Source: a virus
Length of the DNA: 64,000 bases
Direction: 5' to 3' (one strand)
Virus record (IMG/VR): IMGVR_UViG_3300031251_000967
Coordinates: 11,523-75,522 of that record
Position numbers and translations under genes: made by a program. The number at the start of each line of letters is the position of its first letter. Positions within the stretch are counted from its first letter, which is position 1. Below are positions 38,886 through 62,183 of the stretch, piece after piece. Under the pieces are notes generated by a model. It ran no database searches. It was not told the DNA's origin and worked only from the letters and a program-made list of their open reading frames with translations.

Positions 38886-39407
38886 TCATTGTGGCGCCTG
38901 CCCTCCGGGCACCCGGCTCTCGTGCTCCGCGCTCAGCCCCGCCTGCGGCGTGTCTTCGCCCTTCGGGCTTCGATCCGATGGCGCAAGGGCGTAACCCTCT
39001 GGCGGAGTCCAAGAGCCTTGGCCCCAGACGCCGCGCATGTCGGGAAATCGCGCGTAGACGGCATTCTCGGCAGACCGGCGGGCGGCTATCGCCGCGTCTA
39101 CCGCTACGGTCTTTTCTTCTCGCAGCGGGCGCAGCACGGCCATAAGCCTTTCGTTTTCTCGCTCGCGCAGGCTCTGCAACTCGCGAATCTGCCGGTCGAT
39201 GTCTTCGATGGCGCGGCTCTTGGCGTCCCACGCTTCCTCACAAGCCTTCACGGCGTCATCGCGCGCCCGCTCAGCATCAACGACATCTGCCGCGCCCGTC
39301 GCCGCCTCCATAGCGGCGGTAAATTCCTTGCGCCTCTGATCGTAGAGCTTCTGCTTGGCCTTCTTGGCTTCGCGGCGCTGCGCCTTTTGTTCCTCTGTCA
39401 GCCGCAT
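38886..39407 (-). CDS. Coiled-coil hypothetical protein (cargo of cassette A)
   Basis: AGGAGA RBS; C-terminus encoded by hairpin element. Confidence 0.7.
   Translation of the reverse strand: MRLTEEQKAQRREAKKAKQKLYDQRRKEFTAAMEAATGAADVVDAERARDDAVKACEEAWDAKSRAIEDIDRQIRELQSLRERENERLMAVLRPLREEKTVAVDAAIAARRSAENAVYARFPDMRGVWGQGSWTPPEGYALAPSDRSPKGEDTPQAGLSAEHESRVPGGQAPQ
38894..38984 (-). repeat. Four-hairpin element, cassette A downstream copy
   Basis: GCGCC..GGATCGAAGCCCGAAGGGCGAAGAC..GAGAGCC..GGCGC. Confidence 0.85.
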
Positions 39408-39420
39408 GTGCGTGTCTCCT

Positions 39421-39514
39421 GCGATATGCGATCGTTACCGAAGGCCGAGACCGCTTGCGGGCTCGGGGAGCGCCGAAGGCGCGAGTAGAGCGCGGTGCGC
39501 GGTAGCGCAATCGC
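39421..39514 (+). repeat. Four-hairpin element, cassette A upstream copy
   Basis: GCGAT..GGCCGAGACCGCTTGCGGGCTCGGG..ATCGC; 25 nt identical to cassette C upstream copy. Confidence 0.85.
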
Positions 39515-39519
39515 CATAA

Positions 39520-39804
39520 TCAACCATCAGTTGTCTCTCCTCGTGCGGGTGCAGGCGCGGGACAGGCGGGAGGATCGATACGGACGATTTTGAGCCCAGC
39601 CGATTTGAGGTAATCCATCAATGCGGCGGTTAGCTGTTTCGGCATTCGGCCGTTCTGCCGGAGGTCGGCGCAGATGCCCTCAAGGTACTGATCAATGACC
39701 GTGTCCACGATCCGTGGCATGGCAGCGTCGAGCCCCGTCTTGACGCCGCTCGCGACGCCTTCGCCGATAGCGCTGTCCATGTCCTTGCGAAACAGTCCGA
39801 ACAT
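39520..39804 (-). CDS. Hypothetical protein
   Basis: 94 aa, purine-rich RBS. Confidence 0.55.
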   Translation of the reverse strand: MFGLFRKDMDSAIGEGVASGVKTGLDAAMPRIVDTVIDQYLEGICADLRQNGRMPKQLTAALMDYLKSAGLKIVRIDPPACPAPAPARGETTDG

Positions 39805-40211
39805 TGTTGCTCTACCCCCCTCTCCCCTGACGCGCTGCGGAACCCGTTCGGAGTACTGTTTGACGCTTTTCGGAGGAGCGGCCAGTGGTCGCGGAAAAGC
39901 GCTTTCAGCCCTTCCGGTGCCGGCGGTGGGTTGTCGATGATTTCCATGAAGCGGTCGAAAGCGTCTGGCGAGGCGCAGAACGTCGTTTGATCCTCGGAAC
40001 CATCTCGCGCCCGTTCCGAACCCTTCCCTGCATCACAGCCCCGTGAAACAGGCGTTTCACGCGATCCTGGCGGCAGGAGGTCAGCCGGCAGTGCAACTCC
40101 GAGCGCGAGAAGCCCGTTCAGCACGACGTCCACTCGTTCCAGCGATCCATGGATGGCCGGGAACCCGTCGTGGTCGGCCAGTTGCTTGGCGAGGTGATGG
40201 CGGCGGGTCAT
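39630..40211 (-). CDS. Protein containing DUF1778 (TacA-like) C-terminal motif
   Basis: PDAFDRFMEIIDNPPPAPEGLKALF; ATGA-coupled start. Confidence 0.45.
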   Translation of the reverse strand: MTRRHHLAKQLADHDGFPAIHGSLERVDVVLNGLLALGVALPADLLPPGSRETPVSRGCDAGKGSERARDGSEDQTTFCASPDAFDRFMEIIDNPPPAPEGLKALFRDHWPLLRKASNSTPNGFRSASGERGVEQQCSDCFARTWTALSAKASRAASRRGSTLPCHGSWTRSLISTLRASAPTSGRTAECRNS

Positions 40212-40609
40212 GAGGGAGCACGCCCAGCGAATTCGATGCGGATGACCCACGGCGGAGAGCGCGTCTCGTCGCGCTCAATCGCGACCGACTTAACCTTGCG
40301 GCCGTTCCACTTCCTGCCGGGCCTCGCGATCGGCCGGACCCGATACCAGCAATCGGGTTCCTCCCCTTCGACGTAGTCGTCGGGATGCTCCCACTGCACG
40401 CGAAGGTGAAGATCGAAAGGGGCTTCTTTGCCGAACAGGTATTCCAGCACCGAGGCGCGGTCGCGGACCTCCTCCTTGCCGTTCCAGCGCAATCCGGTCC
40501 ACGCCGGGCTGTCCGGCGTCACGCGATAGCCGAGCACCGTGCATGTCGTCGGATCGACGGGGAACAATTCGCGATAGGGATCGCGTTGGATGCGCGGGTC
40601 AATGGTCAT
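40208..40609 (-). CDS. Hypothetical protein
   Basis: ATGA-coupled, 133 aa. Confidence 0.6.
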   Translation of the reverse strand: MTIDPRIQRDPYRELFPVDPTTCTVLGYRVTPDSPAWTGLRWNGKEEVRDRASVLEYLFGKEAPFDLHLRVQWEHPDDYVEGEEPDCWYRVRPIARPGRKWNGRKVKSVAIERDETRSPPWVIRIEFAGRAPS

Positions 40610-40824
40610 GAGGGGACATCCGAGATGAGGCGATAGTGCTTGCTGCGGAACAAATGCGTTCCGAGCGGCAGGCGCGCTCCGATCAGCCGCGGCACTGGAT
40701 GCATGAGCACGTCGCACATCGCGACACCTGGGCGAAGGTCCGCGATCCTGTAACGAGAGACGGCGTTGCGCCGCCGATCGTCCATCTCCCACACCTGCCC
40801 CACCCGTACCTCTGGGGCGATCAC
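40606..40824 (-). CDS. Hypothetical protein
   Basis: VRVGQVWEMDDRR; coupled. Confidence 0.6.
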   Translation of the reverse strand: MIAPEVRVGQVWEMDDRRRNAVSRYRIADLRPGVAMCDVLMHPVPRLIGARLPLGTHLFRSKHYRLISDVPS

Positions 40825-41273
40825 GAGGCACCGCCGACGACAGAGGAAGGGTTTAGCGCATCGGCGTTGCCGACCGGGCTCTCGTCTCCGACCGAGCCCC
40901 TATGGGTCTCGGCCCTCCGGGCTTCGATCCCTTGCGCGTCCAGCGCTTCCAGCCCGTTCGCGAACACGTAGCAGAGCACCGCGAATGATCCGGTGGCGTC
41001 GTTCGGCGGCTGCTGAAAGATGCTCATGACGCCGTCGGCGTAGCAGCGTTCCAGCGCCATCATGTCCGGAGCTTCCGGGTCGGTTATCAGGCGCAAGATC
41101 GCCATCGCCCGCGCGGCGGCGTCGTTGACGTGGCCGTTGAACACCGCCATGTGCACGTCGGGGAACGCGATAGGGATCGCAGCCGAATGGCCAAGACCCG
41201 AAGGGGCTTGGTGCGGAGCACAAGAGCCCGGGCCGAAGGCATCGCCGTTATCTAAGTTGTTGGTTTCGTTCAC
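40821..41273 (-). CDS. Hypothetical protein (cargo of cassette B), reads through both elements
   Basis: GTG after GAGG; DAFGPG..SGLGHSAAIPIA and QGIEARRAET. Confidence 0.6.
   Translation of the reverse strand: MNETNNLDNGDAFGPGSCAPHQAPSGLGHSAAIPIAFPDVHMAVFNGHVNDAAARAMAILRLITDPEAPDMMALERCYADGVMSIFQQPPNDATGSFAVLCYVFANGLEALDAQGIEARRAETHRGSVGDESPVGNADALNPSSVVGGAS
40856..40937 (-). repeat. Four-hairpin element, cassette B downstream copy
   Basis: 27 nt (CGCGCAAGGGATCGAAGCCCGGAGGGC) identical to cassette C downstream copy. Confidence 0.9.
41167..41245 (+). repeat. Four-hairpin element, cassette B upstream copy
   Basis: GCGATAGGGATCGCAGCCGAATGGCCAAGAC..AGAGCCCGGGCCGAAGGCATCGC. Confidence 0.9.
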
Positions 41274-41304
41274 TGTCCTCGTCTCCCCTGTTTCCTCAGG
41301 CCGA

Positions 41305-41670
41305 TCACTCTGCCGCCATCTTCCGGTCGTACTTGTCGCCGTCGATGCGCTCGGCAGCGGGAGGCGCCCATCCTCGCGGCGAGAGGGCCTTCGCCTTTTC
41401 GGCCATCTCCCCGACGGCGGCATGGAACCGGCTGACGAGAATCTTGCGCTCGCGCTCGGCGATGGCCCGCTCCGCGTCGGTCAAGTCATTGGCCCGGATC
41501 TGCCGCCAGTTCGGGCGCACCATGTCGCGCGGCGCCCACGGCGGCTGCACGTACTGCTCACGCTTCGGCCGGCCGTGCATGGCGAAAATGACGCGCTCGG
41601 CCTCGCGGTCGTAATCCGCGTCGAGCCATTCCTGCATCGGGTCGGCGGGGCTCGGAAGCTGAAGCCCCAT
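41305..41670 (-). CDS. Hypothetical protein after replication initiator
   Basis: GGAG RBS; start uncertain. Confidence 0.45.
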   Translation of the reverse strand: MGLQLPSPADPMQEWLDADYDREAERVIFAMHGRPKREQYVQPPWAPRDMVRPNWRQIRANDLTDAERAIAERERKILVSRFHAAVGEMAEKAKALSPRGWAPPAAERIDGDKYDRKMAAE

Positions 41671-41722
41671 GCTCCGCCGCCATGCGCGATCGTAAGCGTG
41701 CCAGCGCCACGTCTGCGGGGTG

Positions 41723-42502
41723 TCAAGCCTCTGACCTGATCCACGTTTTTGGCGGAGGTGCAGAAGGTCGTTCGCGCTGAACGGGGAGTGATAGGATGTC
41801 GGCGGGTTGTCTTGCATTTGGTTCGCCTCGGGCGTTCAGAGCCCAATTAATCCAGGTACGATGCCAATCGGCTTTTCGGCCCTTCGCCGCGGACTGCGAG
41901 AGCCAGTGGTTCGTGAACTTGATGACCTCAGCCTCCAAGTTCGCCCTCGGCAGCGAGACTTTCTCCCGCGCCTTGCGGGCGTCCTCGATCCACTCCTCTG
42001 GCATGACGAAATCCGAAGGCAATCGAGAACCGCGTTCTTCGCTCCCCCGCTTGCGGGGGGGCTTAAGGGGGGATTCTTCTTCTTGGTTATGGGGATGGGG
42101 ATGGGTAGGTTCTTTCTGGGTTGCCTGGAAAGAACCTACCGGGTTTTCTGTTTCGTTTGTTTTCTGAGACTTAGGCCGCCCACCTTGTGCGCCGTTCGCG
42201 CGGCTGTTCGCTGCGCGTTCTTCGACAAATTTCCACTCTTTTTCGAGCCTTTCGTTCCGCCATGTGCCGGCGGACAGGTCGAAGAACTCGGCAATCACCG
42301 GTCGCAGCTTGTCGGTCCAGCGCGCCACGGTGACGCCGAGCATGCGGGCAATGCGCTTGTCATCGTCCGGAAGCGCTTGCCCGGCGTTCCGCCACGTGAT
42401 CATCAGCAGCTTGAGGTACGCGCCATGCTCCTCAAGCGACAAATGCATGGTGTCGCCGAGATAGTCGCCGCAGAATAGGGGCATGGCAGGGGCTTGGCTC
42501 AC
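41723..42502 (-). CDS. Replication initiator, DUF1376/YdaU family
   Basis: MPLFCGDYLGDTMHLSLEEHGAYLKLL; KADWHRTWINW. Confidence 0.85.
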   Translation of the reverse strand: MSQAPAMPLFCGDYLGDTMHLSLEEHGAYLKLLMITWRNAGQALPDDDKRIARMLGVTVARWTDKLRPVIAEFFDLSAGTWRNERLEKEWKFVEERAANSRANGAQGGRPKSQKTNETENPVGSFQATQKEPTHPHPHNQEEESPLKPPRKRGSEERGSRLPSDFVMPEEWIEDARKAREKVSLPRANLEAEVIKFTNHWLSQSAAKGRKADWHRTWINWALNARGEPNARQPADILSLPVQRERPSAPPPKTWIRSEA

Positions 42503-42726
42503 CGCTTCACCTTCACCGCGAGATACCAGCGGGCGTAGTTCTCAGGCGTCGGCCGGCGGCTCCCCGCCTCCCAGCAGGACAGGGCTTGTGGACTGACGCC
42601 GATCTGCCGGGCTACCGTCTTCGCGAGAACGCCGCGCTCCTCACGCAGCCGCCGCAGTTCGGCCGCGCTGACGACGTACTCGGCAAGCGGGTTCTCGCAG
42701 CCGCAATGACGGCACCTACCGGTCAT
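42499..42726 (-). CDS. XRE-family HTH protein
   Basis: VARQIGVSPQALSCWEAGSRRP. Confidence 0.8.
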   Translation of the reverse strand: MTGRCRHCGCENPLAEYVVSAAELRRLREERGVLAKTVARQIGVSPQALSCWEAGSRRPTPENYARWYLAVKVKR

Positions 42727-42777
42727 TCCGGTCTCCCTGGATAGGAGATAGACAGGGGGAGAGGAGAGGAGGTCACG

Positions 42778-43608
42778 CTAGACACCGCAGAATCCTCCGC
42801 AAGCGTTGTTGAACATGCTGAGCTGGTCGCGCTTCAGGTGCGGCGGCTTGGGGACGAACTTCACTTCGCTCAACGGCTTGCGGCTTTCGTGCAGGTACGG
42901 CACGGCGCGGAACTCCGTCGATTGGGCGTATGCGGCTTGGAGTTCGAGTTCCTTGGCGGCGGCGTCGGCACGCTCGGCCGGCGTAAGCTCAAGCCACGCG
43001 TCGTCGTCCTTGAAGGGGCAGAAGGTGCAGGCAGATCGCGGCGGCTCCGGATAGCCCCGCTTCTGCATCCAGGCGAAGCAGTCGGCGCGCGTCATGTCCT
43101 GCTCGATCAGCGGCCACCGAGTTTCAATCCAGTCCTTCCTACTAGGAGCCATACGAGATGCTTCGTCGGTGCTGATGCCGATCCACATCTCGACAAGCGC
43201 ACCGTGCCTCTTCGTCACCCGCTTCATGCCAAGCAGTTCACGGCACTTGCGCGTGACTGGATCGATCTTAAAATCCTGCGTGCACTGGCGCTTGCCCAAG
43301 CCCTTCGCGAGGCCGTCAAGCGTATAAACGGGAATAGCTGTCTGGACGTATGTCCGTTGGCCGTCCCGTGTGCGTCGTACGCGCGTTGCCGACTGCCAGA
43401 GATTGCCGCGCGATACCCGATATACCGGGAACGAAAGGACGCTCTCCAGCCAATCCAGATGGCGATACACCTTCTCCGGCTCGCCCTCAGTGTCTGAGAA
43501 GATGGCGCAATCCGGTTTCGGCCCGACCTCGCCATGTTCGGCCATCAAAGCGAGCGTCGTGCTTTGCACGCCCGCCCCGAGCGATATCGCCCGCAGCCTG
43601 ACGCTCAT
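42778..43608 (-). CDS. PAPS-reductase-like (PP-loop) phage protein
   Basis: SLGAGVQST, IFSDTEGEP, RQCT, IGISTDE, RSACTFCPF, CGGFCGV. Confidence 0.8.
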   Translation of the reverse strand: MSVRLRAISLGAGVQSTTLALMAEHGEVGPKPDCAIFSDTEGEPEKVYRHLDWLESVLSFPVYRVSRGNLWQSATRVRRTRDGQRTYVQTAIPVYTLDGLAKGLGKRQCTQDFKIDPVTRKCRELLGMKRVTKRHGALVEMWIGISTDEASRMAPSRKDWIETRWPLIEQDMTRADCFAWMQKRGYPEPPRSACTFCPFKDDDAWLELTPAERADAAAKELELQAAYAQSTEFRAVPYLHESRKPLSEVKFVPKPPHLKRDQLSMFNNACGGFCGV

Positions 43609-43663
43609 GCCGTCCCCCGTCTTTTGCGATCGACGAGGACAAGGGTTTTCCTGGCAGGGGCCA

Positions 43664-45322
43664 TCAGAGCAAAGCCTCTTGCTGATCGCTGGAGAGCGAT
43701 TGGAACAGGGGGGAGTCGAGACCTTGCATGCGGTCGAGACGGCGCTTGATATCGGCTACGTACTCGGCTTCCCGCTCGATCAGGATCGCGTCGAAACCTT
43801 CCCGCATGCAGGCCGCGCCCGTGGTACCGGAGCCGGCGAAGGGATCAAGCACGGTGCCACCCGGCGGGGTGACGAGGCGCACGAGCCAGCGCATGAGCGC
43901 GATCGGCTTTACGGTCGGGTGCTTGCTGTCGCAGCGATCGTCGGCGTCGGCCTTGGCGGAGAAGAAGAAACGGGCGGCAGAGCCTGTTTCACTCTCAATG
44001 GCACCGATGGGCGATCCGGCCGCCGTACTGCCATAACCCGGCGCGCGCACCGTGCCGCCGCGGGTCCCGTGCGTCTGTCGCTCTCCGAACTGCGCGAAGG
44101 CTTCCAGCACCTCGTCAGAGCCGTCGTGGACGAGGTTAGCGGGCCAGCGGCCGAGCGCTTCGCCCGGTCGCTGCTCGGCAAAGCGTTCGGGAGTCGTGCG
44201 ATCGGTAATCGTGTGACCGTATTCACCGGGCGTGCCCGAAGGCGCGTAGCCGCGGCGTGCGACGCTCGGGTTCTCGCCCGCCACCCGGCACGCATCGACG
44301 TTCAACGCCCCGGTGCCGTGCAACAGCACGTTCGCAGCAACGGTGCCGTCGAGAGGCTTACGGGCAAGGACGATCGGCTCCCAGGCGGGCTTTAGGGCGG
44401 TTCCTATTCCGTCAGGAACAATCGGTTTGCCGCACCTTCCGCAATCCGGCCATGCTCCGCCATCTTGTGGCTCCGGTTGTCCGGCCACAGTTCCAGATTG
44501 CTCGGATCGTTGTTCAGCGGCTTGTGATCCCCGTGGTGAACCACTTCCACCCGCAGCAACGGACGGCCGATCCGCTTCGCCATTACTAACCGATGTTCCA
44601 TCACATAGCCGTCCGCACGCGCCATGCTGATGAACTCCGGCGGGCATCTGACATACCGAACCGAGACATAGTTTCCGTGTCTCTTCCGGTAGGTTACGCC
44701 GCCCTTCCAAGCCCAGTTGGCAGCACCCTTCGGCGGGGGCGGCGCATTGCAGTGCTTCAGCGGATGCGCCTTGTTCCGGCAGGCACGGGAACAATACCTG
44801 CCGCTGCCCGCTCGCAACTGATGAGGCCGCCGATACATCGGCGTCGTGCACAACACGCAAGTTGTATTCGGGCGACGGTTCGGGGTGCTCACAGTCGCAG
44901 ATTTTACCATCTAACGCCTTGTTTATGCTATGACTTTTCGGAAATCCGGCACCATAGCACCAAGCCAATTGGTCACGGATCTCGAAACCGGCATCCTCGA
45001 TAGCGCAGGCGAGCCGGTGATAGGTGCGCGTGCCGCTGAAGGCGATCAGATGCGCGCCCGGCTTCAAGACGCGGTAGACTTCACGCCACCAGTCAGGATC
45101 GAACGCGGTCTCCCCAGTGTCCCATTGCTGGCCCATGAATCCAGCCGATGCCCGCTTGTAGAGGCCGTCCCGGTCCTTGGCTGGCGCGCTGCCGGGCTTG
45201 CCGAAACGCTTCTGGATGCTGACGAGCGAGTACGGCGGATCTGTCACGCATGCGTCTATGCTGCCGTCTGCGAAAGTGCGCGCGACGTCGCGGCAATCGC
45301 CGTGCTCGACGCGAATGTTCAT
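43664..45322 (-). CDS. DNA methyltransferase, N6/N4 beta class, with about 170-aa insertion
   Basis: TDPPY, GFPKSH, GTALKPAWEPI, HPTVKP, LDPFAGSGTTG. Confidence 0.92.
   Translation of the reverse strand: MNIRVEHGDCRDVARTFADGSIDACVTDPPYSLVSIQKRFGKPGSAPAKDRDGLYKRASAGFMGQQWDTGETAFDPDWWREVYRVLKPGAHLIAFSGTRTYHRLACAIEDAGFEIRDQLAWCYGAGFPKSHSINKALDGKICDCEHPEPSPEYNLRVVHDADVSAASSVASGQRQVLFPCLPEQGASAEALQCAAPAEGCCQLGLEGRRNLPEETRKLCLGSVCQMPAGVHQHGACGRLCDGTSVSNGEADRPSVAAGGSGSPRGSQAAEQRSEQSGTVAGQPEPQDGGAWPDCGRCGKPIVPDGIGTALKPAWEPIVLARKPLDGTVAANVLLHGTGALNVDACRVAGENPSVARRGYAPSGTPGEYGHTITDRTTPERFAEQRPGEALGRWPANLVHDGSDEVLEAFAQFGERQTHGTRGGTVRAPGYGSTAAGSPIGAIESETGSAARFFFSAKADADDRCDSKHPTVKPIALMRWLVRLVTPPGGTVLDPFAGSGTTGAACMREGFDAILIEREAEYVADIKRRLDRMQGLDSPLFQSLSSDQQEALL
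44404..44910 (-). CDS. HNH endonuclease nested out of frame within the MTase
   Basis: CxxC..YCSRAC zinc finger, WKGG, YVMEHRLVM...EVVHHGDHKPLNNDPSNLELW. Confidence 0.85.
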   Translation of the reverse strand: MVKSATVSTPNRRPNTTCVLCTTPMYRRPHQLRAGSGRYCSRACRNKAHPLKHCNAPPPPKGAANWAWKGGVTYRKRHGNYVSVRYVRCPPEFISMARADGYVMEHRLVMAKRIGRPLLRVEVVHHGDHKPLNNDPSNLELWPDNRSHKMAEHGRIAEGAANRLFLTE

Positions 45323-45795: not shown

Positions 45796-45806
45796 GATGG
45801 ATCGCC

Positions 45807-46046
45807 CTACTCCGCGGCCTCGCGCAGGGGCGCCCCGAAATACTGGCGGCGTCGGCGGGCTTTCTCTCGCCCGCCTTGGTGCGGCATGTATCTTGACGAA
45901 CCGCGTACCGCGCGAAGCTTGCGGTCGCATGTGCCTGGATGGACCAGCGTCGGCCGCAAGCGCCAGTTCTCCCTGATGATCGCGAAGGTGATGTGGCGAT
46001 TGGTGGTGGCGAAGCCGCGGGCGAAAGGATTGCTCTTCCGCATCAC
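45807..46046 (-). CDS. Hypothetical basic protein
   Basis: Coupled start; ends EAAE. Confidence 0.45.
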
Positions 46047-55940: not shown

Positions 55941-55995
55941 CCACCTTCTCGCTCAAGCGGAACTGAAGCGCCAAGCCCTTTCAGAAACGAAATAG
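55750..55995 (+). CDS. Hypothetical protein overlapping bet 3' end
   Basis: AAGGAG RBS; ends 3 nt before next start. Confidence 0.55.
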   Translation: MAMSEQMDLLASAPDPEHEKWKAEATRLLRSIRAAPHMTAFELHMRVIAPRLEALGRYSAKARDHLLAQAELKRQALSETK

Positions 55996-55998
55996 AAC

Positions 55999-56436
55999 AT
56001 GGCACTCGGCAGCGGGAAGCGTCCCAAGGTGCGCCTGATCGACGACAGCGCATTCCTGATCCAGCGGGAGAAGCCGCACGAGGAGAAGCCGCGCCCGCAG
56101 TTCCGGTCAGGGCGACACAAGGCATGGATCCGCTCGCTGCCGTGCTGCGCGATCCACAGCCCAGCTCACGAGGGGCTTGTCCAGGCCGCACATTACCGGA
56201 TCGGGACGGACGGCGGCGGCGGGCTTGAGCCTTCAGATTTCTTCTGCAACCCGCTGTGCGAGCGGTGCCATCTCAGGGTTCAGCACCGCATCGGCGAGCG
56301 GTCGTTCCACCGGCTCTTCACGCAGTACGCGGATCCGGCACGGGAAGCCCTGTTGCTCGCCTTGCAGTCTCCCTGCCCTCGCACCGTCGCGGCGGCAAGG
56401 GAAGAGTTCGAGAGGAGATACGGAAGCAATGGCTGA
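55999..56436 (+). CDS. DUF968/Ref-like HNH-fold nuclease
   Basis: WIRSLPCC, AAHYRIG, PLCERCH..QHRIGE. Confidence 0.75.
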   Translation: MALGSGKRPKVRLIDDSAFLIQREKPHEEKPRPQFRSGRHKAWIRSLPCCAIHSPAHEGLVQAAHYRIGTDGGGGLEPSDFFCNPLCERCHLRVQHRIGERSFHRLFTQYADPAREALLLALQSPCPRTVAAAREEFERRYGSNG

Positions 56437-56650
56437 GCGAGACGAAGTGCTCGTGTTCCTTCAGGCTCTGATGAAGTTCGGCGAGCCGCAACGGCTGACG
56501 CGGAAACATCTGCCGCCCGCCACACACGAGCAGGACAAGGCCCGCCAGCATTCCCGCCGCGCCGGATGGGCGAGCTATTGGGATAGCGGATGGACGATCA
56601 CCGCTGCTGGGCAGGAAGAGCTTGCGCGCCGGGAGGCGGCGAATGCCTGA
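56429..56650 (+). CDS. Hypothetical protein
   Basis: AGGAG RBS; WTITAAG. Confidence 0.55.
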   Translation: MAERDEVLVFLQALMKFGEPQRLTRKHLPPATHEQDKARQHSRRAGWASYWDSGWTITAAGQEELARREAANA

Positions 56651-57158
56651 CACCCCGCCTCCGATGGCCTTCGTCTGGAAGGATGGAGCAATGGTCCCGC
56701 TTCATCGCCGGCTTGCCGAGAAGCATTTCGGCGAGGGGGAAATTGTCACGCTGGAAGTGCGGGAAGATCGTTCGGCCGCATCCCACCGTCATTACTTCGC
56801 CTGCATCGCGGAGGCGCACGCCAACCTGCCGGAGGAAATCGCCGAGCGGCTTCCGACACCGGACCATTTACGCAAATTCGCACTGATCCGGAGCGGCTAT
56901 CGCGACGAACGGTCCATGCCGTGCTCATCAAAGGCTGAGGCGCGGAAGCTGGCCGCCTTCGTGAAGCCGATAGACGAGTTCGCGATCGTAGCCGTGCATG
57001 AGGCGACCGTCACCATCTGGACGGCGAAATCACAATCCGTCAGGGCGATGGGGAAAGCCGAATTCCAGAAGAGCAAGGATGACGTTCTGTCCTTCGTCGC
57101 CTCTCTGATCGGCACCGATTCCGCCACCCTGCAACAACATACCAATGAAGCCGCGTGA
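56643..57158 (+). CDS. NinB/DUF1367-like protein
   Basis: RSAASHRHYFA, AKSQSVRAMGKAEF. Confidence 0.7.
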   Translation: MPDTPPPMAFVWKDGAMVPLHRRLAEKHFGEGEIVTLEVREDRSAASHRHYFACIAEAHANLPEEIAERLPTPDHLRKFALIRSGYRDERSMPCSSKAEARKLAAFVKPIDEFAIVAVHEATVTIWTAKSQSVRAMGKAEFQKSKDDVLSFVASLIGTDSATLQQHTNEAA

Positions 57159-57168
57159 GGAGAACCTT

Positions 57169-57495
57169 ATGCCTGACCTATCGAACGTCAAGACCGGCGA
57201 CAAGCTCTACGTGCCCGGCCGGTTTGAGGGCGGCAGCATCCTGACCGTTCAGCGGATCACCCCGACGGGACGCATCGTCACTGAGAACGGCACCTTTATG
57301 CCGAACGGCCGATTGGTAGGAGCGAGTGGCTGGGATGTGACGCATGGCCGCCCCGCCACGCCAGAGGACATTGAGAATGTCCGGCAATCAAAGATTCTCC
57401 ACCGCCTGAAGGCCACAAAGTGGGCTGAGGTTTCACCGGAAACGCGCGATGCGATCGTGCAACTACTGAATAGCGCGAAGGCGCAGAAGTCATGA
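57169..57495 (+). CDS. Hypothetical beta-barrel protein
   Basis: VKTGDK...VQRITPTGRI. Confidence 0.6.
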   Translation: MPDLSNVKTGDKLYVPGRFEGGSILTVQRITPTGRIVTENGTFMPNGRLVGASGWDVTHGRPATPEDIENVRQSKILHRLKATKWAEVSPETRDAIVQLLNSAKAQKS

Positions 57496-58520
57496 CCTCG
57501 TCCTCACCGACACCGCCCCTCACGGCGGAAGAGATACCGCCACCGCTCGATGTCGAGAAGCTGAAGGAGATCGCGAGCGCCGCGTCTCAAGGCGATTGGA
57601 TGGCGTGCGGCCCCTACGCCTACAAGAGCGATGGCGGCCGTGAAACGTATCGGATCGAGGCTCCCGGCGAACTCGTCGCGATGGTGATGGCTCACCATGA
57701 GCTTGGCGAAAAGAACGCCGAGTTCCTGGTCGCCGCACAGCCCGCGACCTTCCTCCGCCTCCTCTCCGCCCTCGCCGAGCACCAAGAAACCATCGCGGGT
57801 GTAATCCGAGTCCTTTCCGGCATCGGCAATTTCGAGGGCCGATCGCTCGGTGAGGCCTTGGAAGACGTGATCGACGAGAAGGATCGGCGCATCGCCGAGC
57901 TGGAGCGCGCGGCCAAGATCTCGGACGACGTGACCCGCCGGCTTCAAGAGCATGCCGAAGCACTCGCCCGCCAGCGCGACCACTACTACGACATGGCCTA
58001 CGCCGAGTGCCCTGACGAGCATGGCTTTCCAGGTGAGACGTGGCAATCCCGCGCCACAGCCGAGAAGGCCCGCGCGGACGCGGCGGTGGAGCGAGAGAGG
58101 GTGCTGCGGGATGTGATTGGCAACCTCTCCGCGAAGGCCATGCTCGGCAAGCAAATCTGCCAGGACGATCACCCCAAGATCGCCGAAGGCTTCCAAGTCA
58201 TCGCAGACTATGCCGACGCCGCCCTGTCCTCCCCCGCACCAGGGAGCGGGGAGGCGGACCCGCGCTTGCGCGACTTGGCGAGACCTGACCACGGCTTTCG
58301 TGTCGGAGATCGCGTCCGGATCGCATCTACCGCGCCGTACGCCGCCGACTGGCAAGGCGTTGAACTCACCGTCGTCGGCATGCGCCTCACTCCGTCCGGC
58401 AAAATGACCTTCCACGTGTCGGAGAACTGGCCGGCGGATGGCGGGTTCGATGACGTGCCGCCAGAAGATCTCGTCCATTGGTCTCCCGCCGCCGGGAGTG
58501 AGGAGCAAGAACATGGCTGA
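57492..58520 (+). CDS. Ead/Ea22-like mosaic protein
   Basis: LKEIASAASQGDW...NAEFLVAAQPATFLRLL. Confidence 0.7.
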   Translation: MTSSSPTPPLTAEEIPPPLDVEKLKEIASAASQGDWMACGPYAYKSDGGRETYRIEAPGELVAMVMAHHELGEKNAEFLVAAQPATFLRLLSALAEHQETIAGVIRVLSGIGNFEGRSLGEALEDVIDEKDRRIAELERAAKISDDVTRRLQEHAEALARQRDHYYDMAYAECPDEHGFPGETWQSRATAEKARADAAVERERVLRDVIGNLSAKAMLGKQICQDDHPKIAEGFQVIADYADAALSSPAPGSGEADPRLRDLARPDHGFRVGDRVRIASTAPYAADWQGVELTVVGMRLTPSGKMTFHVSENWPADGGFDDVPPEDLVHWSPAAGSEEQEHG

Positions 58521-59634
58521 GCACGATCAGCGTTTCGACACCTTCCAGCAATGGGTAAACAAGGCATCGTCCTGGCTTACCCGGCGCGGTGAGCACGTGA
58601 AGGTCATTTGCTTTGACCAGAAAGGCCGGCTCGTCAGCAACGGCGGCGACATGATGCGCGCCCGCGACGAAGGCGCTTTCCCGGTCGAGTGGGTCTGGCC
58701 GGAGCAGGCCGTCGAAGCCGTCATGAAGGCTCGGTCGACCCCTACCCCCGCGTCTCCTCCGGCGACGGCAGCGGAGAGCGTGACGCTGCTCGAAGAGGTG
58801 CGCGACGTGCTCACCTGGGCCGCTACGGTGATCCGCCCCGGCTCGGACCTCCGAACGTCGATGGACGCGGTGACGGCAAAGATTGTCGCCGCCCTCACCG
58901 CCGCCGGGCAGGCGACGCCGGACCCGCGAGACGAGTTGATCGCTGATTTGCGCGGGCAACTCGCGACGTTGCAGGCGAACTATCGCAACGTTGCGTCCGC
59001 CGCCGGGAAGGCCGCGCCGATCCCGATGATCCTGCATTGTCCGAAGTGCGGCGAGCAACACATCGACGAGCCGGACGAGCGTACGCCCGGATGGACCAAC
59101 CCGCCCCATCGGAGCCACCTCTGTCATGGCTGCCAGACCATCTGGCGGCCGGCGGACGTGCCGACCGTTGGCGTGCGGTCGATCGAGACGCGCGGCAAGG
59201 CGGACACATGGGCCGCCGGGCAGGCCGCGACACCATCTGCCGCGCTAAACCAGCTGTTGCTCGAATGCGAGGCCGTTGCCCGGCTGGCGAGCTTCGAGAC
59301 GATCAAGCGCCAGGGCGGGATCATCCACATCGGCCTGTCGGCACAGGACATCGAAGCGGTCATCGCGCATTTAGGCGGACAGGCCGCGACACCGAGCGAG
59401 CCGGCCGATGCATGGCGGCCGATCGAGACCGCGCCTGACCATGGCTTCATTCAGGTCTGGTGTCCAGAAGATGATTCTGCCCGCGAGGCATACCGCAATC
59501 TTCATGACCCGTGGTGGCGCAATCCTTACTCTGGGGCGGCATTAGAGCCCGCGCCGGTAGTGTGGAAGCCTTTTGAAAAGGCTCCCCTTCGCATGGTCGG
59601 CCCCTCCTCACAGGGAGCGCCGATCGATGAGTGA
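58513..59634 (+). CDS. Mosaic protein with repeated linkers and DUF551-like C-terminus
   Basis: CPKCGEQHID...HRSHLCHGC; WRPIETAP. Confidence 0.7.
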   Translation: MAEHDQRFDTFQQWVNKASSWLTRRGEHVKVICFDQKGRLVSNGGDMMRARDEGAFPVEWVWPEQAVEAVMKARSTPTPASPPATAAESVTLLEEVRDVLTWAATVIRPGSDLRTSMDAVTAKIVAALTAAGQATPDPRDELIADLRGQLATLQANYRNVASAAGKAAPIPMILHCPKCGEQHIDEPDERTPGWTNPPHRSHLCHGCQTIWRPADVPTVGVRSIETRGKADTWAAGQAATPSAALNQLLLECEAVARLASFETIKRQGGIIHIGLSAQDIEAVIAHLGGQAATPSEPADAWRPIETAPDHGFIQVWCPEDDSAREAYRNLHDPWWRNPYSGAALEPAPVVWKPFEKAPLRMVGPSSQGAPIDE

Positions 59635-59836
59635 CTACGGCACCGTGATCGACCGCTGCCGGGACTGCGGCTGCCTCAGCCATGTCGGCTATCCGTCGTT
59701 GCTCTGCCGCGACTGCTACCGCGAAGGGGAGCGCAGCGGCGAAATCCCGGTCGACGATCCCGACCCTGACGACGTGCTCGAAGATCCCGACTGGAAGCCA
59801 TGGGACATGCGCACGGAGCCCTCCGATGCCGAATGA
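59627..59836 (+). CDS. Small zinc-finger protein
   Basis: CRDCG...CRDC. Confidence 0.55.
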   Translation: MSDYGTVIDRCRDCGCLSHVGYPSLLCRDCYREGERSGEIPVDDPDPDDVLEDPDWKPWDMRTEPSDAE

Positions 59837-60281
59837 CCCCGCCGCTCTCCTCCCCCTCGCAGAGGCATGCGGACGGGCCCAGGTGGAGGACGAACTTCGC
59901 CTGCTGCGGCGGATTATCCCGACGCTCGTACAGGCCGGCTTGCTGTCGTGGACAGACGGCAACGACGCCGAGAACATCTGCCTGCATGTCGCAAACGGTG
60001 TGCTTCCGCGCTCCTGCCTCCTCGGCGCGGCGATGATGCTAAAGCCGGCCGAATACAGGTGCGGGTTCGAAGAGGCGGACGGGCTGGATGCGGACCAGCG
60101 GGCCGAAGCGTGGTGCTGGCCCGACGACCGGTCGTGGGAGCCGGACTGGCGCGAGGGCAACGAAGGGTATCGCGGCCATCCGCACGGCTCACGATCGGCG
60201 GCCGTGACGCCGGCCCTTGCCATGACCGGTGCGTTCCTCCGCGCCCACCACACCGCCGCCGCGGATGACGGAGGCAAGTGA
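59826..60281 (+). CDS. Hypothetical protein
   Basis: TPALAM..AFLRA motif. Confidence 0.6.
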   Translation: MPNDPAALLPLAEACGRAQVEDELRLLRRIIPTLVQAGLLSWTDGNDAENICLHVANGVLPRSCLLGAAMMLKPAEYRCGFEEADGLDADQRAEAWCWPDDRSWEPDWREGNEGYRGHPHGSRSAAVTPALAMTGAFLRAHHTAAADDGGK

Positions 60282-60415
60282 TGCTTTGGATTGTGGTGGC
60301 GGCACTGGCGGCCGTGTCCCCTGTGGTACTCGCCGCCCTCCTGCCGTCCATCGTGGCGGCCCGGCAAGATCGAATCCTGAAAAGGGCCGCGGATGACGGG
60401 GAGGCGGGACGGTGA
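60281..60415 (+). CDS. 44-aa membrane peptide (not in track)
   Basis: TGATG-coupled at both ends. Confidence 0.5.
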   Translation: MLWIVVAALAAVSPVVLAALLPSIVAARQDRILKRAADDGEAGR

Positions 60416-60606
60416 TGCGAGATCTGACGCCGGAAGAGGAGCGTGCCATCGCATCGCTGGAGCGGATCGCGAAGAGATGGCCGCAGACGCTCAAACTCTT
60501 TTCGTGGTCCGGCTCGCTCTACGTGATGGATGCGGCGGTTCAGCCCGGCGCCGACGCGATTCTCGCGAGTATCTGCAACATTCCGAACGATGGCGGCGAC
60601 CCGTGA
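60415..60606 (+). CDS. Hypothetical protein
   Basis: RWPQTLKLFSWSG...IPNDGGD. Confidence 0.6.
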   Translation: MRDLTPEEERAIASLERIAKRWPQTLKLFSWSGSLYVMDAAVQPGADAILASICNIPNDGGDP

Positions 60607-60666
60607 ACGCCACCCCACCCACCCCCGCCGCAGGATCGCCCGCGCAAGAGACGAAGGAGTAAGGAC

Positions 60667-60816
60667 GTGGACGATTTCGATGATGACGTGTTCGGCGAGG
60701 ATCCGGACGAGGTCGATGCGATGCTGAGCTGCGGCCGGACGGATGACGGGCTCTGCATGCTTGCCGGCACCGAGCACTGCGATTTCGAGTGCCCGTATCG
60801 GGATGCACTCCGGTGA
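60667..60816 (+). CDS. Acidic Cys-rich peptide (not in track)
   Basis: AAGGA RBS; CG..DGLCMLAGTEHCDFECPY. Confidence 0.55.
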   Translation: MDDFDDDVFGEDPDEVDAMLSCGRTDDGLCMLAGTEHCDFECPYRDALR

Positions 60817-61400
60817 CCGTCGCCTCATCCCGCCCCGCCGGAGCGGACCGCCACGACAGCGGCTGCAAGGTGAAGATGCCGCTCCCGCCCGGCGTGACGG
60901 GAAGCGCGATCTTCCGCGGCGAGAGAGACGAACACCGGCTCGTTCTGGAGCGTCGGTTCGCTGACCTCACCATCAGCGCCGACCCGGAAGCCTTCGCGCT
61001 CTGGCTGGGCATGAACCCGTCCGGTGCTGAGGCGGATGTGAACGATCTCACGATCGTGAAAGAGTGCACCTGGACCAAGCGGCTTGGCTTCCGACGCTAC
61101 GTCAAGGGCAACGCCGGAACCTACCGCTGGACGGACAGCACGACCTTGAACGCCTCGCGATGCGTTCTCTCGCACCCGGACAACCTGCCGGTGCTCCGTG
61201 CGCTGGCGGCTGAGGCCGGCATAATCGTGCTCGCCACGGGAAAACCGCCGGAACGGCTTTTACCCGATGTCGCGGCGCTGTTCGATGCCCTGAAGAGCGA
61301 CGGACGCACGGTCCATTGCCTCGGCACGACTAAAGACGGGTGGCCGAAGCATTCGAGCCGGCTCGGCTACGGCACGCCGTTCGTGGAGTACCAGCTATGA
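60813..61400 (+). CDS. DUF1643 family protein
   Basis: WLGMNPSGAEADVNDLTI, CLGTTKDGWPKH. Confidence 0.8.
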   Translation: MTVASSRPAGADRHDSGCKVKMPLPPGVTGSAIFRGERDEHRLVLERRFADLTISADPEAFALWLGMNPSGAEADVNDLTIVKECTWTKRLGFRRYVKGNAGTYRWTDSTTLNASRCVLSHPDNLPVLRALAAEAGIIVLATGKPPERLLPDVAALFDALKSDGRTVHCLGTTKDGWPKHSSRLGYGTPFVEYQL

Positions 61401-61678
61401 GCCGCCCCGCCGGAGCGGAGACACCGGAGGAGATCGCTGAGCGGGTCTTCAGGTCTGTGCCGGGCGGCCGTTTTTACGAACGGCGACTTGAAGAAGCCTT
61501 CGCCGCCGCCCTCCGCGCCGAAGGCGAGCGGAGAGCCGCCGAGATGCGGGAAAGGGCCACCGATTATCTGATCAGCTTGGCGACCAGCATGTGCGATTCG
61601 AGCGAGCTTGCCGAATTCGTCCGTGCCCTCCCCCTCTCCCCTCCCGCTCAGGACGGCGGGAGCGATACGCAACCATGA
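61397..61678 (+). CDS. Hypothetical protein
   Basis: ATGA-coupled. Confidence 0.6.
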   Translation: MSRPAGAETPEEIAERVFRSVPGGRFYERRLEEAFAAALRAEGERRAAEMRERATDYLISLATSMCDSSELAEFVRALPLSPPAQDGGSDTQP

Positions 61679-61683
61679 GTTTA

Positions 61684-61765
61684 GCGATGCCTTCGGCCCG
61701 GGCTGTCGGTCCTTCGGACCCGAGCCCGCAAGCGGTCTCGGCCATTCGGCTTCCATCCCTATCGC
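61684..61765 (-). repeat. Four-hairpin element, cassette C upstream copy
   Basis: Reverse complement GCGATAGGGATGGAAGCCGAATGGCCGAGAC..AGCCCGGGCCGAAGGCATCGC. Confidence 0.9.
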
Positions 61766-61778
61766 ATTGGAGAAGCAC

Positions 61779-62183
61779 ATGACGACGCGGACGATTCTCA
61801 AACGAGTGAGCATGACCCTCGCCGAGAACGAGATCTGGATGGACCCGACTGAAATCGTTCTCGTCCACCATCCGAAGTACGGCTTCAACCGGCACACGGT
61901 CGAGGACGTGATCGAGGTCATTGCAGCCGAAGAGGATGATGTCGACATCCTCAACAACGGTTACAGCGACGACAACGGCCCTGTCGATCCCGGCGACCTG
62001 TGCGGCGACTCCTTCTGCATTACCGCTCAGAACGCCCGCGCGCTCGGCGAAGCGCTGATCCGCGCCGCGCAAGGGATCGAAGCCCGGAGGGCGGAGACTG
62101 CGCAAGCAGGCTCCGTCGCAGACGAGAGCCCGACCCCGCAGGGGATGCGCCCAACCACTGATTGCGGGGAGCCCTCGTCATGA
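61779..62183 (+). CDS. Acidic hypothetical protein (cargo of cassette C)
   Basis: GGAGA RBS; C-terminus QGIEARRAET encoded by element. Confidence 0.7.
   Translation: MTTRTILKRVSMTLAENEIWMDPTEIVLVHHPKYGFNRHTVEDVIEVIAAEEDDVDILNNGYSDDNGPVDPGDLCGDSFCITAQNARALGEALIRAAQGIEARRAETAQAGSVADESPTPQGMRPTTDCGEPSS
62067..62150 (+). repeat. Four-hairpin element, cassette C downstream copy
   Basis: GCGCAAGGGATCGAAGCCCGGAGGGCGGAGAC..GAGAGCC..TGCGC. Confidence 0.9.

Follow-up and report, generated by a model that had tools for sequence, protein, structure and literature searches.

Phage G4 initiates its minus strand at oric, which is recognised by DnaG, and the minus-strand origin of phiX174 is the primosome assembly site n'. 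Both are multi-hairpin single-stranded DNA (ssDNA) sites of the packaged strand, which in Microviridae is the coding-sense strand, and both occupy an intergenic position beside the major capsid gene; they are active on one strand and are served by host replication proteins. In the oriV of plasmid RSF1010, two structured priming signals, ssiA and ssiB, lie on opposite strands; they are 40-nt hairpins used by the plasmid primase at this single origin. The Rickettsia palindromic elements (Ogata et al. 2000), scattered within chromosomal genes, are structured repeats that reportedly lie in frame in protein-coding genes and are translated. STAXI is a repeated structured motif near anti-restriction, SSB, and integrase genes, and is suspected of acting as ssDNA. 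The STAXI motif was presented by Weinberg et al. 2010 (PMC2864571), and the phiX174 hairpin is covered in PMC9865509, where a minus-strand-initiation hairpin is expected in every microvirus. The leading regions of F-like plasmids contain the Frpo/ssi single-strand promoters (Masai and Arai 1997, cited in PMC11541004), Frpo being a hairpin of roughly 300 nt with mimics of the -35 and -10 boxes. Anti-defence genes in leading regions face the direction that lets them be transcribed from the transferred strand (PMC11541004).

Here we describe a widespread element of 70 to 100 bases, called E, which folds on one DNA strand and has not previously been filed as a family. The window, a stretch of 64,000 nucleotides of the IMG/VR virus record IMGVR_UViG_3300031251_000967, carries six copies (Table 1). 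An earlier note, made from the letters of this DNA, had listed six repeats there, and all of them are genuine: R1, a covariance model seeded with 32 IMG/VR copies and five window copies (c2 was outside the seed), recovers exactly these six. R1 found no seventh copy in the window (the next-ranked match had an E value of 0.14), and a motif scan of the entire 75.5-kb provirus gave six copies and no more. IMG/VR contigs, alphaproteobacterial genomes, and plasmids hold more than 190 additional copies, a single phage carrying as many as 12 and a single genome as many as 14. The window copies are mosaic, with segments shared between copies, and the subtype of c2 is also present in Bradyrhizobium nitroreducens (copies L230 and L231). 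The earlier note had not recognised the element as attC, REP, or a named RNA family. This agrees with the search of Rfam (in which we take STAXI to be included), where no family matched, and with the attC and REP features that were checked, which the element lacks. No printed occurrence of its core motif was found in the literature searched.

Table 1. Element copies and associated features in the window, and element copies in Microviridae
Feature	Position	Strand	Description	R1 match
c1	38894..38984	-	3' end of cassette A; loop strand = sense strand of gene; P2 of CGG/CCG type; P3 = tandem G.A variant	42.1 bits, E=9e-7
c2	39421..39514	+	5' end of cassette A; loop strand antisense to gene; P2 = divergent GCG/CGC; H3 long	29.4 bits, E=4.7e-4
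c3	40856..40937	-	3' end of cassette B	82.8 bits, E=1.8e-15
c4	41167..41245	+	5' end of cassette B	64.8 bits, E=1.3e-11
c5	61684..61765	-	5' end of cassette C; loop strand antisense to gene; pair C13-G69 changed to G-C	67.5 bits, E=3.3e-12
c6	62067..62150	+	3' end of cassette C	75.5 bits, E=6.6e-14
Cargo A ORF	38886..39407	-	173 aa, coiled-coil-like (ORF listing and translation)	
Leader ORF of cassette A	39398..39523	-	41 aa (ORF listing, sequence)	
Cassette B ORF	40821..41273	-	Frame open across both c3 and c4 (translation)	
Leader ORF of cassette C	61675..61782	+	35 aa (sequence)	
Cargo C ORF	61779..62183	+	134 aa (translation)	
Deletion scar	40571..40584	+	14 nt, GCGATAGGGATCGC, = first 14 nt of c4	
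E in KT264808.1	Between VP1 and VP2	Coding		65.4 bits
E in MH572438.1	Intergenic	Coding		46.5 bits
E in IMG/VR contigs L052 and L072	Intergenic	Coding	Both with Phage_F capsid and Rep genes	

The two copies of each window pair lie in inverted orientation and turn the 5' end of the loop strand toward the gene, and the three cargos are unrelated (14 to 17% identity, no family in common), both as the earlier note had said. Cargo A has no Pfam or PHROG match, and cargo C found only itself, and no other homologue, in a set of 5.8 billion proteins. The frame of cargo A continues through c1 to a stop in an ATGA overlap 4 nt beyond the element, and that of cargo C continues past c6 to an ATGA overlap with the following gene. 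Upstream, the leader ORF of cassette A starts in a TGATG overlap with the preceding gene, crosses rc(c2), and stops 8 nt beyond the cargo ATG. That of cassette C starts in an ATGA overlap with the preceding gene, crosses rc(c5), and stops within an ATGA shared with the cargo start codon at 61779. The cassette B ORF has two candidate starts, GTG at 41273 (with a GGAGA Shine-Dalgarno site) and ATG at 41150, and it stops within a GTGA shared with the following gene. The exact 14-nt sequence of the scar occurs at 40571 and 41167 only (chance expectation, 8e-4). It sits 22 nt after the ATG of the next gene there (ATGA overlap at 40606-40609), in the position and orientation of an upstream copy, and is what would be expected to remain of a c4-like copy after deletion between its two ATCGC repeats.

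Four hairpins joined by conserved linkers had been described for the element. The hairpins are paired and the linkers are conserved, but the linkers are not single-stranded and the hairpins are not four free ones: the linkers pair with one another, as P2 (GGGAUCG with CGAGAGCCC, G.A pairs included) and P3 (CGAG with CUCG), so the structure is a nested one with two junctions: P1, then P2 around H1, P3-H2, and an optional H3, with H4 also optional. The terminal stems were read correctly: all three upstream copies have GCGAT/ATCGC, and downstream ones have GCGCA or GCGCC. Across 140 distinct copies, pairing was kept in 96.5% of cells versus 73.6% in shuffles, and compensatory changes occurred at 19 of the 23 pairs (656 cells). 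None of 500 shuffles reached the pairing and compensatory values of the real alignment, and slid controls gave 33 to 46%. P2 covaries among GGG/CCC, GCG/CGC, CGG/CCG, and AGG/CCU, a concerted change links AUCG..GAGAG and AUGG..GACAG, and some members have Watson-Crick pairs in place of the G.A loop. Folding of single sequences gives modest z-scores (-0.5 to -3.2); support for the fold comes from covariation.

The two strands differ markedly. GNA triloops number 284 on the loop strand and 6 on the opposite strand, and with DNA parameters the loop strand folds better than its complement in all six window copies, the minimum-energy fold being that of the covariation model for c2, c5, and c6. G-U makes up only about 1% of the pairs. 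Loop-strand features are common to upstream and downstream phage copies, although the two kinds are oppositely oriented with respect to the mRNA. Conservation of unpaired nucleotides and G.A pairs is strong, distant carriers included, and among related contigs the element is 87 to 91% conserved, compared with 67 to 76% for its flanks. The structured nucleic-acid site of the earlier note is supported as folded ssDNA, over duplex DNA or an mRNA element.

The rc(E)-gene-E arrangement is general in temperate phages, where it accounts for 38 of the 52 neighbour pairs of copies less than 900 bp apart (P = 5e-13). Inverted pairs around variable, unrelated genes occur in many phages. In conjugative elements most copies stand alone or point the same way, and microviruses have a single copy. 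Cargo in the other phage cassettes is unrelated and includes Lar and a C5 methylase, and genes nearby encode ERF, Rad52, YqaJ, NinB, SSB, and integrase; the window phage encodes RecT. The operons that hold the cassettes are tightly coupled, with ATGA overlaps on both sides, and the phage genes are translated through 22 of 23 downstream copies (P = 2e-4) and all 23 upstream ones (P = 1e-3), the upstream copy beginning 16 to 20 nt past the start codon in many of them. The loop strand is at the 3' end of each cassette strand, the two ends of one cassette are of different subtypes, and the gene may face either way relative to them. One cargo family has zero, one, or two copies of the element, which together with the deletion scar shows gain and loss of single copies at gene ends, and the cassette position is not the same in related contigs L053, L064, and L085.

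In conjugative elements, the element lies upstream of ardC, ParB-like, and DUF736 genes, on their template strand. It was found 300 to 1000 nt upstream of 6 of the 12 ardC genes of five genomes, and the first gene behind it encodes ArdC at 8 loci, a ParB-like protein at 5, and DUF736 at 3, with trbI within about 20 kb. Two other conserved hairpin modules precede it in Bradyrhizobium, where we infer the transferred strand from gene orientation, and 12 of the 14 copies of B. nitroreducens are on one strand. Contig L016 is an exception that reverses the arrangement seen at ardC: the element precedes SLT and FtsK-like genes there, but on the coding strand. Four Microviridae genomes (4.2 to 4.8 kb) have the element once each, between genes and on the coding strand.

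The Microviridae and ardC contexts, invisible to the earlier reader, change the reading of the element. A function as ssDNA is suggested by its packaged-strand position in microviruses, its template-strand position before ardC, ParB-like, and DUF736 genes, and the strand features kept in phage pairs. We regard it as a strand-specific element working as folded ssDNA and most likely, with about an even chance of being right, as a putative host-recognised single-strand initiation signal of the kind of G4 oric, phiX174 n', and Frpo. A host primase, primosome, or RNA polymerase would start complementary-strand or primer-RNA synthesis at the element on exposed ssDNA, and recognition by a host factor would be the reason why unrelated mobile elements have it in common. 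Its role in microviruses would be that of the minus-strand origin, and in conjugative elements it would act on the transferred strand ahead of establishment genes. In this temperate phage, each accessory gene, with one copy per strand, 3' end outward, would present a correctly oriented site whichever strand became single-stranded, and synthesis would run into the gene; exonuclease/RecT recombination, strand displacement, and lagging-strand exposure are possible sources of ssDNA. The copies would be held within the first and last codons, and kept open for translation, because these operons have no intergenic space. A priming role by itself explains neither why copies lie exactly at gene termini, abutting the conserved cargo core, nor why dsDNA temperate phages need several sites.

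These features might instead point to a selfish palindromic repeat like the Rickettsia elements, REPINs, or MITEs, spreading among mobile elements without a function for the carrier and surviving at gene ends only as in-frame, stop-free copies. The high copy numbers, the presence at both ends, one end, or neither of one cargo family, the deletion scar in the window, the translation through nearly all copies, and the mosaic sharing of segments would all fit, and yet we consider this unlikely. Useless DNA would be costly in the small microvirus genomes, which keep one intergenic copy, and selfish spread accounts poorly for the fixed position and orientation before ardC, ParB-like, and DUF736 genes, the conservation of unpaired nucleotides and G.A pairs, and the excess of conservation over the flanks. 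Neither a target-site duplication (at symmetric offsets of 0 to 30 nt in 31 cassettes) nor a Y1 transposase of the HUH class (in the provirus and in the 14-copy B. nitroreducens genome) was found, in line with the earlier note, which had seen no duplication and no transposase. The same results weigh on its own model, quite unlikely in our view, of non-autonomous cassettes excised and inserted as units by a structure-specific recombinase or HUH nuclease acting on ssDNA. The generality of rc(E)-gene-E around unrelated cargo, end subtypes that differ like left and right transposon ends with the gene in either direction, and the loop strand at both 3' ends speak for such cassettes. Movement as units nevertheless found no support, since no pair of empty and filled sites with breakpoints at the GCG termini was found, each end of one gene family gains and loses single copies on its own, and the copies outside phages are mostly solitary or direct in conjugative elements and single in microviruses; the phage integrase and RecT of the provirus are not linked to the element.

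Exchange of accessory genes could also use the element as a conserved linker for homologous or single-strand-annealing recombination (ERF, RecT, Rad52-type), its hairpins stalling forks or exposing ssDNA. Cassettes adjoining annealing-protein, exonuclease, SSB, and NinB genes, their shifting position in related contigs, and variable cargo between ends more conserved than the flanks are consistent with this. We judge it very unlikely: homology needs no fold, yet selection on one strand maintains fold, loops, and G.A pairs; the microvirus copy and the fixed position before ardC are left unexplained; and recombination between partner ends would invert the cargo, not exchange it, because these ends are inverted. 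Least of all do we favour a role in mRNA, which is highly improbable, whether copies pair and loop out the cargo for processing, as the earlier note had offered, or each acts as a stabiliser or translation regulator. Both copies are transcribed and translated in the coupled operons, and the spacing of upstream copies from the start codon in many phage genes would suit such a role. Partners are, however, no more similar or complementary (0.703) than non-partners (0.706), and their P1 and hairpins are not the same. The GNA loops and purine-purine pairs of upstream copies are on the antisense strand, G-U pairs are nearly absent, and before ardC it is the template strand that carries the loops. 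From microvirus genomes alone an RNA role may be possible, because the virion strand there has the same sense as the mRNA.

Among known systems, integron attC sites resemble the element in folding as ssDNA, in conserving structure over sequence, and in lying beside variable cassettes. An attC site is a single imperfect hairpin with R and L boxes, present once per cassette in direct orientation and used by IntI, and none of these specific features is shared. With STAXI, the element has in common a repeated structured motif near anti-restriction, SSB, and integrase genes and a suspected action as ssDNA; fold and sequence differ. Like the Rickettsia palindromic elements, it is a structured alphaproteobacterial repeat translated in frame within genes, but it occupies gene termini of mobile elements in a defined orientation, plus fixed non-coding positions. 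Frpo/ssi are likewise folded, on the transferred strand, and before early establishment and anti-restriction genes; the element is shorter (70 to 100 nt), GC-rich, and multi-branched, and no promoter-like -35/-10 mimic was found in its sequence, and it is therefore not Frpo-like in detail. Phage pairs recall ssiA and ssiB of RSF1010 as structured, here putative, priming signals on opposite strands, but there are many per genome, each around an accessory gene. The likeness to G4 oric and phiX174 n' is one of structure and position: a multi-hairpin ssDNA site of the packaged strand, in the intergenic gap by the major capsid gene, with one-strand activity, priming, and recognition by host replication proteins that are putative for the element. 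Unlike those origins, it is found in conjugative elements too, and dsDNA temperate phages carry it within their genes, many times over and in either orientation.

The covariance model of E (R1), the 70- to 100-base structured element, was built from 37 copies and scored at every position of the window. It recovered all six copies where the earlier note had placed them (E values of 1.8e-15 to 4.7e-4), including c2, a divergent copy outside the seed, and none besides, the next match having an E value of 0.14. A motif scan over the entire 75.5-kb record, a provirus according to IMG/VR and 100% complete according to CheckV, gave no additional copies. A degenerate pattern of the 5' half of E retrieved 89 IMG/VR stretches, most of which contain the whole element, and R1 identified 163 copies in these loci and 33 more in 80 bacterial-genome loci. 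The bacterial carriers belong to Bradyrhizobium, Rhodoplanes, Azospirillum, Iodidimonas, Rhodovulum, Rhodospira, and Sphingorhabdus, and numerous alphaproteobacterial MAGs carry E as well. With E and the Bradyrhizobium upstream composite (described below) as the query, blastn matched 17 plasmids, 14 of them from Bradyrhizobium. No Rfam 15 family reached its gathering threshold when the window was searched together with 18 genomic loci, 4 IMG/VR loci, and 2 GenBank microviruses, and permissive Rfam scans yielded only chance-level matches. The E core motif returned nothing beyond chance primer matches in a full-text literature search, and blastn of the window's cassette regions against GenBank phages gave no match.

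Copies of E and other features located in the window, in phage genomes, and in compared loci
Feature	Sequence	Coordinates	Strand	Description
E copy c1	window	38894-38984	-	cassette A
E copy c2	window	39421-39514	+	cassette A
E copy c3	window	40856-40937	-	cassette B
E copy c4	window	41167-41245	+	cassette B
E copy c5	window	61684-61765	-	cassette C
E copy c6	window	62067-62150	+	cassette C
14-nt string	window	40571-40584		equal to first 14 nt of c4; expected by chance, 8e-4
O-antigen acetyltransferase-like gene	window	34926-35942	+	phrog_3333, phrog_6705; between late and early regions
E	Gokushovirus WZ-2015a, KT264808.1	1603-1675	+	within 103-nt VP1-VP2 gap; 65.4 bits
E	Microviridae sp., MH572438.1	2708-2776	+	gap before Rep gene; 46.5 bits
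E, one copy	IMG/VR contig L052		coding	4526 nt, terminal overlap; Phage_F capsid and Rep
E, one copy	IMG/VR contig L072		coding	4536 nt; Phage_F capsid and Rep
E	MT839809.1 (L244)	2238-2330		38.8 bits; unverified 4-kb "Bacteriophage sp.," faecal metagenome
Flank outside upstream copy	L004	1047-1098		98% identical to L049 flank
Flank outside upstream copy	L049	8838-8890		98% identical to L004 flank
Tandem modules upstream of E	L155	1960-2230	-	about 90 nt each
E	IMG/VR contig L016	6690-6757	coding	upstream of operon; 46% GC
E, short, without H4	L007	596-663	template	upstream of DUF932; 47% GC

The earlier note had described conserved linkers between separate hairpins. These stretches are conserved, but RNAalifold and our own reading show that they pair with each other instead of separating independent hairpins. 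In this fold, P1 is the terminal stem, with an optional hairpin H4 before its 3' strand; P2 is formed by GGGAUCG pairing with CGAGAGCCC, with A.G and G.A pairs included; and inside P2 lie, in order, H1, P3 (CGAG with CUCG) capped by H2, and an optional H3. Among 140 distinct copies, pairing is kept in 96.5% of cells versus 73.6% in shuffles, and two-sided changes occur at 19 of the 23 pairs (656 cells), which was matched by 0 of 500 shuffles. Sliding the 3' partners as a control gave 33 to 46% pairing. The outer triplet of P2 covaries (GGG/CCC, GCG/CGC, CGG/CCG, and AGG/CCU), covariation switches link AUCG..GAGAG with AUGG..GACAG and GAAG..CGAGAG with GAAA..UGAGAG, and the purine-rich internal loop is swapped for Watson-Crick pairs in two members.

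G-U pairs make up about 1% of the stems, which are otherwise nearly all Watson-Crick, and this near-absence is unusual for RNA. The hairpins are dominated by C(GNA)G triloops, which form very stable DNA mini-hairpins: 284 are found on the strand bearing them, which we call the loop strand, against 6 would-be GNA loops on the opposite strand. With DNA folding parameters, the loop strand was favored in all six window copies, by about 3 kcal/mol, and the minimum-energy DNA fold equals the covariation model for c2, c5, and c6. Relative to the mRNA, the loop strand of a copy at a gene's 5' end is antisense and that of a 3'-end copy is sense, and the copies at both ends share identical loop-strand features; the selected fold therefore cannot be the mRNA fold at both gene ends. 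The functional form of E is probably folded ssDNA of the loop strand. A tRNA-like reading was rejected; ARAGORN found no tRNA in the window.

The inverted pairing around genes seen in the window extends to other temperate phages. Of 52 pairs of neighboring copies separated by under 900 bp in IMG/VR loci, 38 have the order rc(E)...E, where rc(E) is the reverse complement (binomial test; P = 5e-13), with spacings of 130 to 854 bp, the size of one small gene. The order E...rc(E) accounts for 11 of the 52, four of them only 54 to 98 bp apart, as in back-to-back cassettes, and complete phage contigs carry 7 to 12 copies each. The typical bracketed gene starts 16 to 20 nt ahead of rc(E), and its start often overlaps the upstream stop as ATGA. 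It remains open through both copies and stops 15 to 45 nt past E, where a further ATGA overlap, preceded by CCAAGGAG, joins it to the next gene. Upstream copies are read through in 23 of 23 cases and downstream copies in 22 of 23, where the share of stop-free frames predicts 0.74 (P = 1e-3) and 0.61 (P = 2e-4), respectively. The frame across E varies between copies, which argues for selection on the openness of E and not on the peptide. In the window, cassette B is open through both copies; in A and C, a short leader ORF is followed by the cargo's own Shine-Dalgarno site and ATG. The phage arrangement consists of inverted pairs that lie inside accessory genes, e.g., those for Lar and orphan methylases, within the first and last codons, and we know of no described counterpart. 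Translated pairs that are gained and lost at gene ends could explain how accessory genes are plugged into tightly coupled operons. About 50 nt outside the upstream copy, with the motif TCCGGCCCGGAAAGGTAGTGTGATGGAA, are nearly the same in two otherwise unrelated contigs (L004 and L049, see the table), which indicates that the conserved unit extends past E to the ribosome-binding site and start codon in some lineages. A conserved CCA follows the terminal stem in phage copies, where a Shine-Dalgarno site comes next; its reading as a tRNA-like end or primase start was dropped, as it is absent from conjugative-element copies.

The cargo genes are indeed unrelated, encoding across cassettes small proteins mostly without family. 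One is Lar-like (a restriction-alleviation protein), a C5 DNA methylase is the cargo in one case with an upstream copy only, and cargo C has no homolog beyond itself. Genes near cassettes encode integrases (10), ERF (8), Rad52-like proteins (3), YqaJ (3), NinB (3), and SSB (2), as well as methylases and Lar. The window phage encodes RecT, a repressor, an integrase, and a large terminase, and ArdC is absent from the provirus. Its O-antigen acetyltransferase-like gene is likely a lysogenic-conversion moron.

When E was searched against GenBank phages by blastn, only small ssDNA phages were matched. KT264808.1 is circular (4812 nt), with every gene on the plus strand. The packaged strand of Microviridae is the coding-sense strand, and once inside the cell they begin with synthesis of the minus strand, which host enzymes start at a hairpin region. 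Minus-strand synthesis starts at such a region in phiX174, and a structure of this kind is expected in every microvirus (PMC9865509).

In bacterial genomes, E is mostly single or in direct orientation. Bradyrhizobium copies form the 3' part of a composite of about 300 nt, behind two tandem hairpin modules, and the composite folded as ssDNA has a z score of -4.1. The modules were found at L155 and at seven more loci of Bradyrhizobium and relatives (L146, L129, L139, L163, L149, L116, and L156). Each module is closed by a GGCAC/GUGCC stem and holds a small hairpin, the invariant string GCAGUGAUAGCG, and a long GAA-loop hairpin. Nothing in Rfam matches the modules, and their invariant TAGCG may resemble the CS-6 box of ssoA origins. 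In B. nitroreducens, 12 of the 14 copies lie on the same strand, and 3 of the 4 trbI genes are within about 20 kb of E copies. Across five genomes, E lies 300 to 1000 nt upstream of 6 of the 12 ardC genes, its loop strand being the ardC template strand in all of them. The first gene behind E encodes ArdC at 8 loci, a ParB-like protein at 5, and DUF736 at 3, with ParE and a subtilase also found. Leading-region anti-defense genes are oriented for transcription off the transferred strand, and Frpo/ssi structures act as ssDNA promoters in leading regions (PMC11541004). Following this orientation rule, we infer that the loop strand is the transferred strand in conjugative elements. Neither E nor the composite preceding ardC was found to contain an Frpo-like promoter mimic.

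The DUF736 genes (bacterial genome loci L154, L100, and L099) lie behind E on the template strand, and this family may likewise belong to the establishment or leading-region genes of conjugative elements in Alphaproteobacteria. In the IMG/VR contigs L016 and L054 (both 46% GC), E precedes an operon for an SLT transglycosylase, a GNAT acetyltransferase, and a 1384-aa FtsK-gamma protein, on the coding strand, the reverse of the ardC loci. The short form without H4 occurs in L007 and L028 (4.8- to 5.7-kb contigs of 47% GC), on the template strand upstream of DUF932, a family common on conjugative elements.

Partner copies of one cassette belong to different subtypes, and their likeness does not exceed that of non-partners (0.703 versus 0.706). 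One cargo family of 44 homologs (core identity to the query of 40 to 92%) includes every state of E, with E-encoded tails at both ends, at the N terminus only, at the C terminus only, or at neither, the last including a homolog whose core is 92% identical. In the DNA of the same family, both copies are present in L236 and L238, only the upstream one in L239, and none in L240 and L241, and nothing separates the inner end of E from the conserved core. The 14-nt string shared with c4 lies 22 nt past an ATGA-coupled start, placed and oriented as upstream copies are; it is what a c4-like copy would be expected to leave behind after a deletion between its two ATCGC repeats and looks like the scar of a lost copy. 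In related contigs, E is 87 to 91% conserved versus 67 to 76% for its surroundings. The idea that cassettes move as units fared differently: an all-against-all comparison of flanks among loci revealed no empty/filled site pair, most matches being other copies of E. Searches with flanking proteins (IMG/VR and metagenomes) found only relatives of 28 to 50% identity to the provirus, too distant for an empty-site comparison. A target-site duplication is lacking, as first noted, with no 3- to 6-nt direct repeat at symmetric offsets of 0 to 30 nt in 31 cassettes; for transposases, the same holds as far as Y1_Tnp, absent from the provirus and from the B. nitroreducens genome with 14 copies. The only joint, from 39467 to 41225 (contigs of four rhizosphere metagenomes against 37500-42500), proved to be cross-mapping of c5 onto c2 and c4 and speaks neither for nor against excision.

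Three contexts of E have to be accounted for. In ssDNA phages it is on the packaged strand; ahead of conjugative establishment genes, on the presumed transferred strand; and around temperate-phage accessory genes, on both strands, where the 3' ends point outward and the carriers have single-strand-annealing recombination modules. The replication and transfer enzymes of these carriers are unrelated, which points to recognition by a host factor, and this factor would recognize E in all three carrier kinds. The most economical reading is that E is a candidate single-strand initiation signal, to which we give about an even chance. A purely selfish palindromic repeat, weighed with the presence and absence of single copies at gene ends on one side and the strand placement in these contexts on the other, is unlikely. 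The view that a pair forms the ends of a cassette moved by a recombinase or HUH enzyme draws on the inverted pairs and faces the missing duplications, Y1_Tnp, and empty sites; we consider it quite improbable. Slightly less probable again is a recombination linker, for which the annealing modules of the phages speak and the solitary copies of microviruses do not. An action in the mRNA, for which the translated phage copies speak, is highly improbable, given the opposite sense of the two gene ends.

If E is a host-recognized initiation signal, it would be the first candidate minus-strand origin for the gokushovirus-like microviruses bearing it, none having been proposed earlier to our knowledge. 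It would also be an alphaproteobacterial counterpart of Frpo/ssi controlling early anti-restriction genes in conjugative elements, and one structured DNA signal common to unrelated ssDNA phages, ICEs/plasmids, and temperate tailed phages. More doubtfully, E-bounded units may be exchangeable accessory-gene cassettes with a complementary-strand origin at each end, a self-priming ssDNA gene-cassette system moving anti-defense genes among microviruses, conjugative elements, and temperate phages of Alphaproteobacteria. Either strand, when exposed through conjugation, replication, or the phage's exonuclease and annealing protein, could then become duplex by synthesis from its own 3' end and undergo recombination. 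The R1 model is a ready annotation tool for E and also flags candidate anti-defense genes.

E was compared with several known systems. The proposed self-priming cassettes would functionally recall parvoviral ITRs. Integron attC sites are single imperfect palindromes with R''/L'' and L'/R' boxes, whereas E has a multi-junction fold with GCG...CGC ends; attC cassettes lie in direct orientation with intI and attI nearby, unlike the inverted pairs of E, and the sole integrase of the provirus is of phage type (phrog_1). REP/REPIN elements with RAYT and IS200/IS605 combine short hairpins with a Y1 HUH transposase, missing from the two E carriers checked, and both IS200/IS605 ends are on the same strand, while those of an E cassette are on opposite strands. 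DDE-type transposons and MITEs have terminal inverted repeats and a target-site duplication, the latter not seen for E. Rickettsia palindromic elements are in-frame, translated insertions in ORFs; read-through of E is significant, and its copies are at gene termini. The Frpo-type ssDNA promoter is a long hairpin with -35 and -10 hexamers, whereas E has only short GC-rich helices. The single-strand initiation signals (G4 oric, phiX174 n', ssi, sso, and Frpo) share with E a strand-specific folded structure on a strand that is single-stranded in the life cycle, which for E is the coding strand in four microviruses and the template strand before ardC, ParB-like, and DUF736 genes, the presumed transferred strand according to PMC11541004. 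The closest analogues of E in our analysis are G4 oric, the phiX174 n' site, the M13 minus origin, and Frpo/ssi and sso elements; within this class, the sequence, fold, and host group of E are all new, and its inverted, translated, gene-bracketing arrangement is a new variant.
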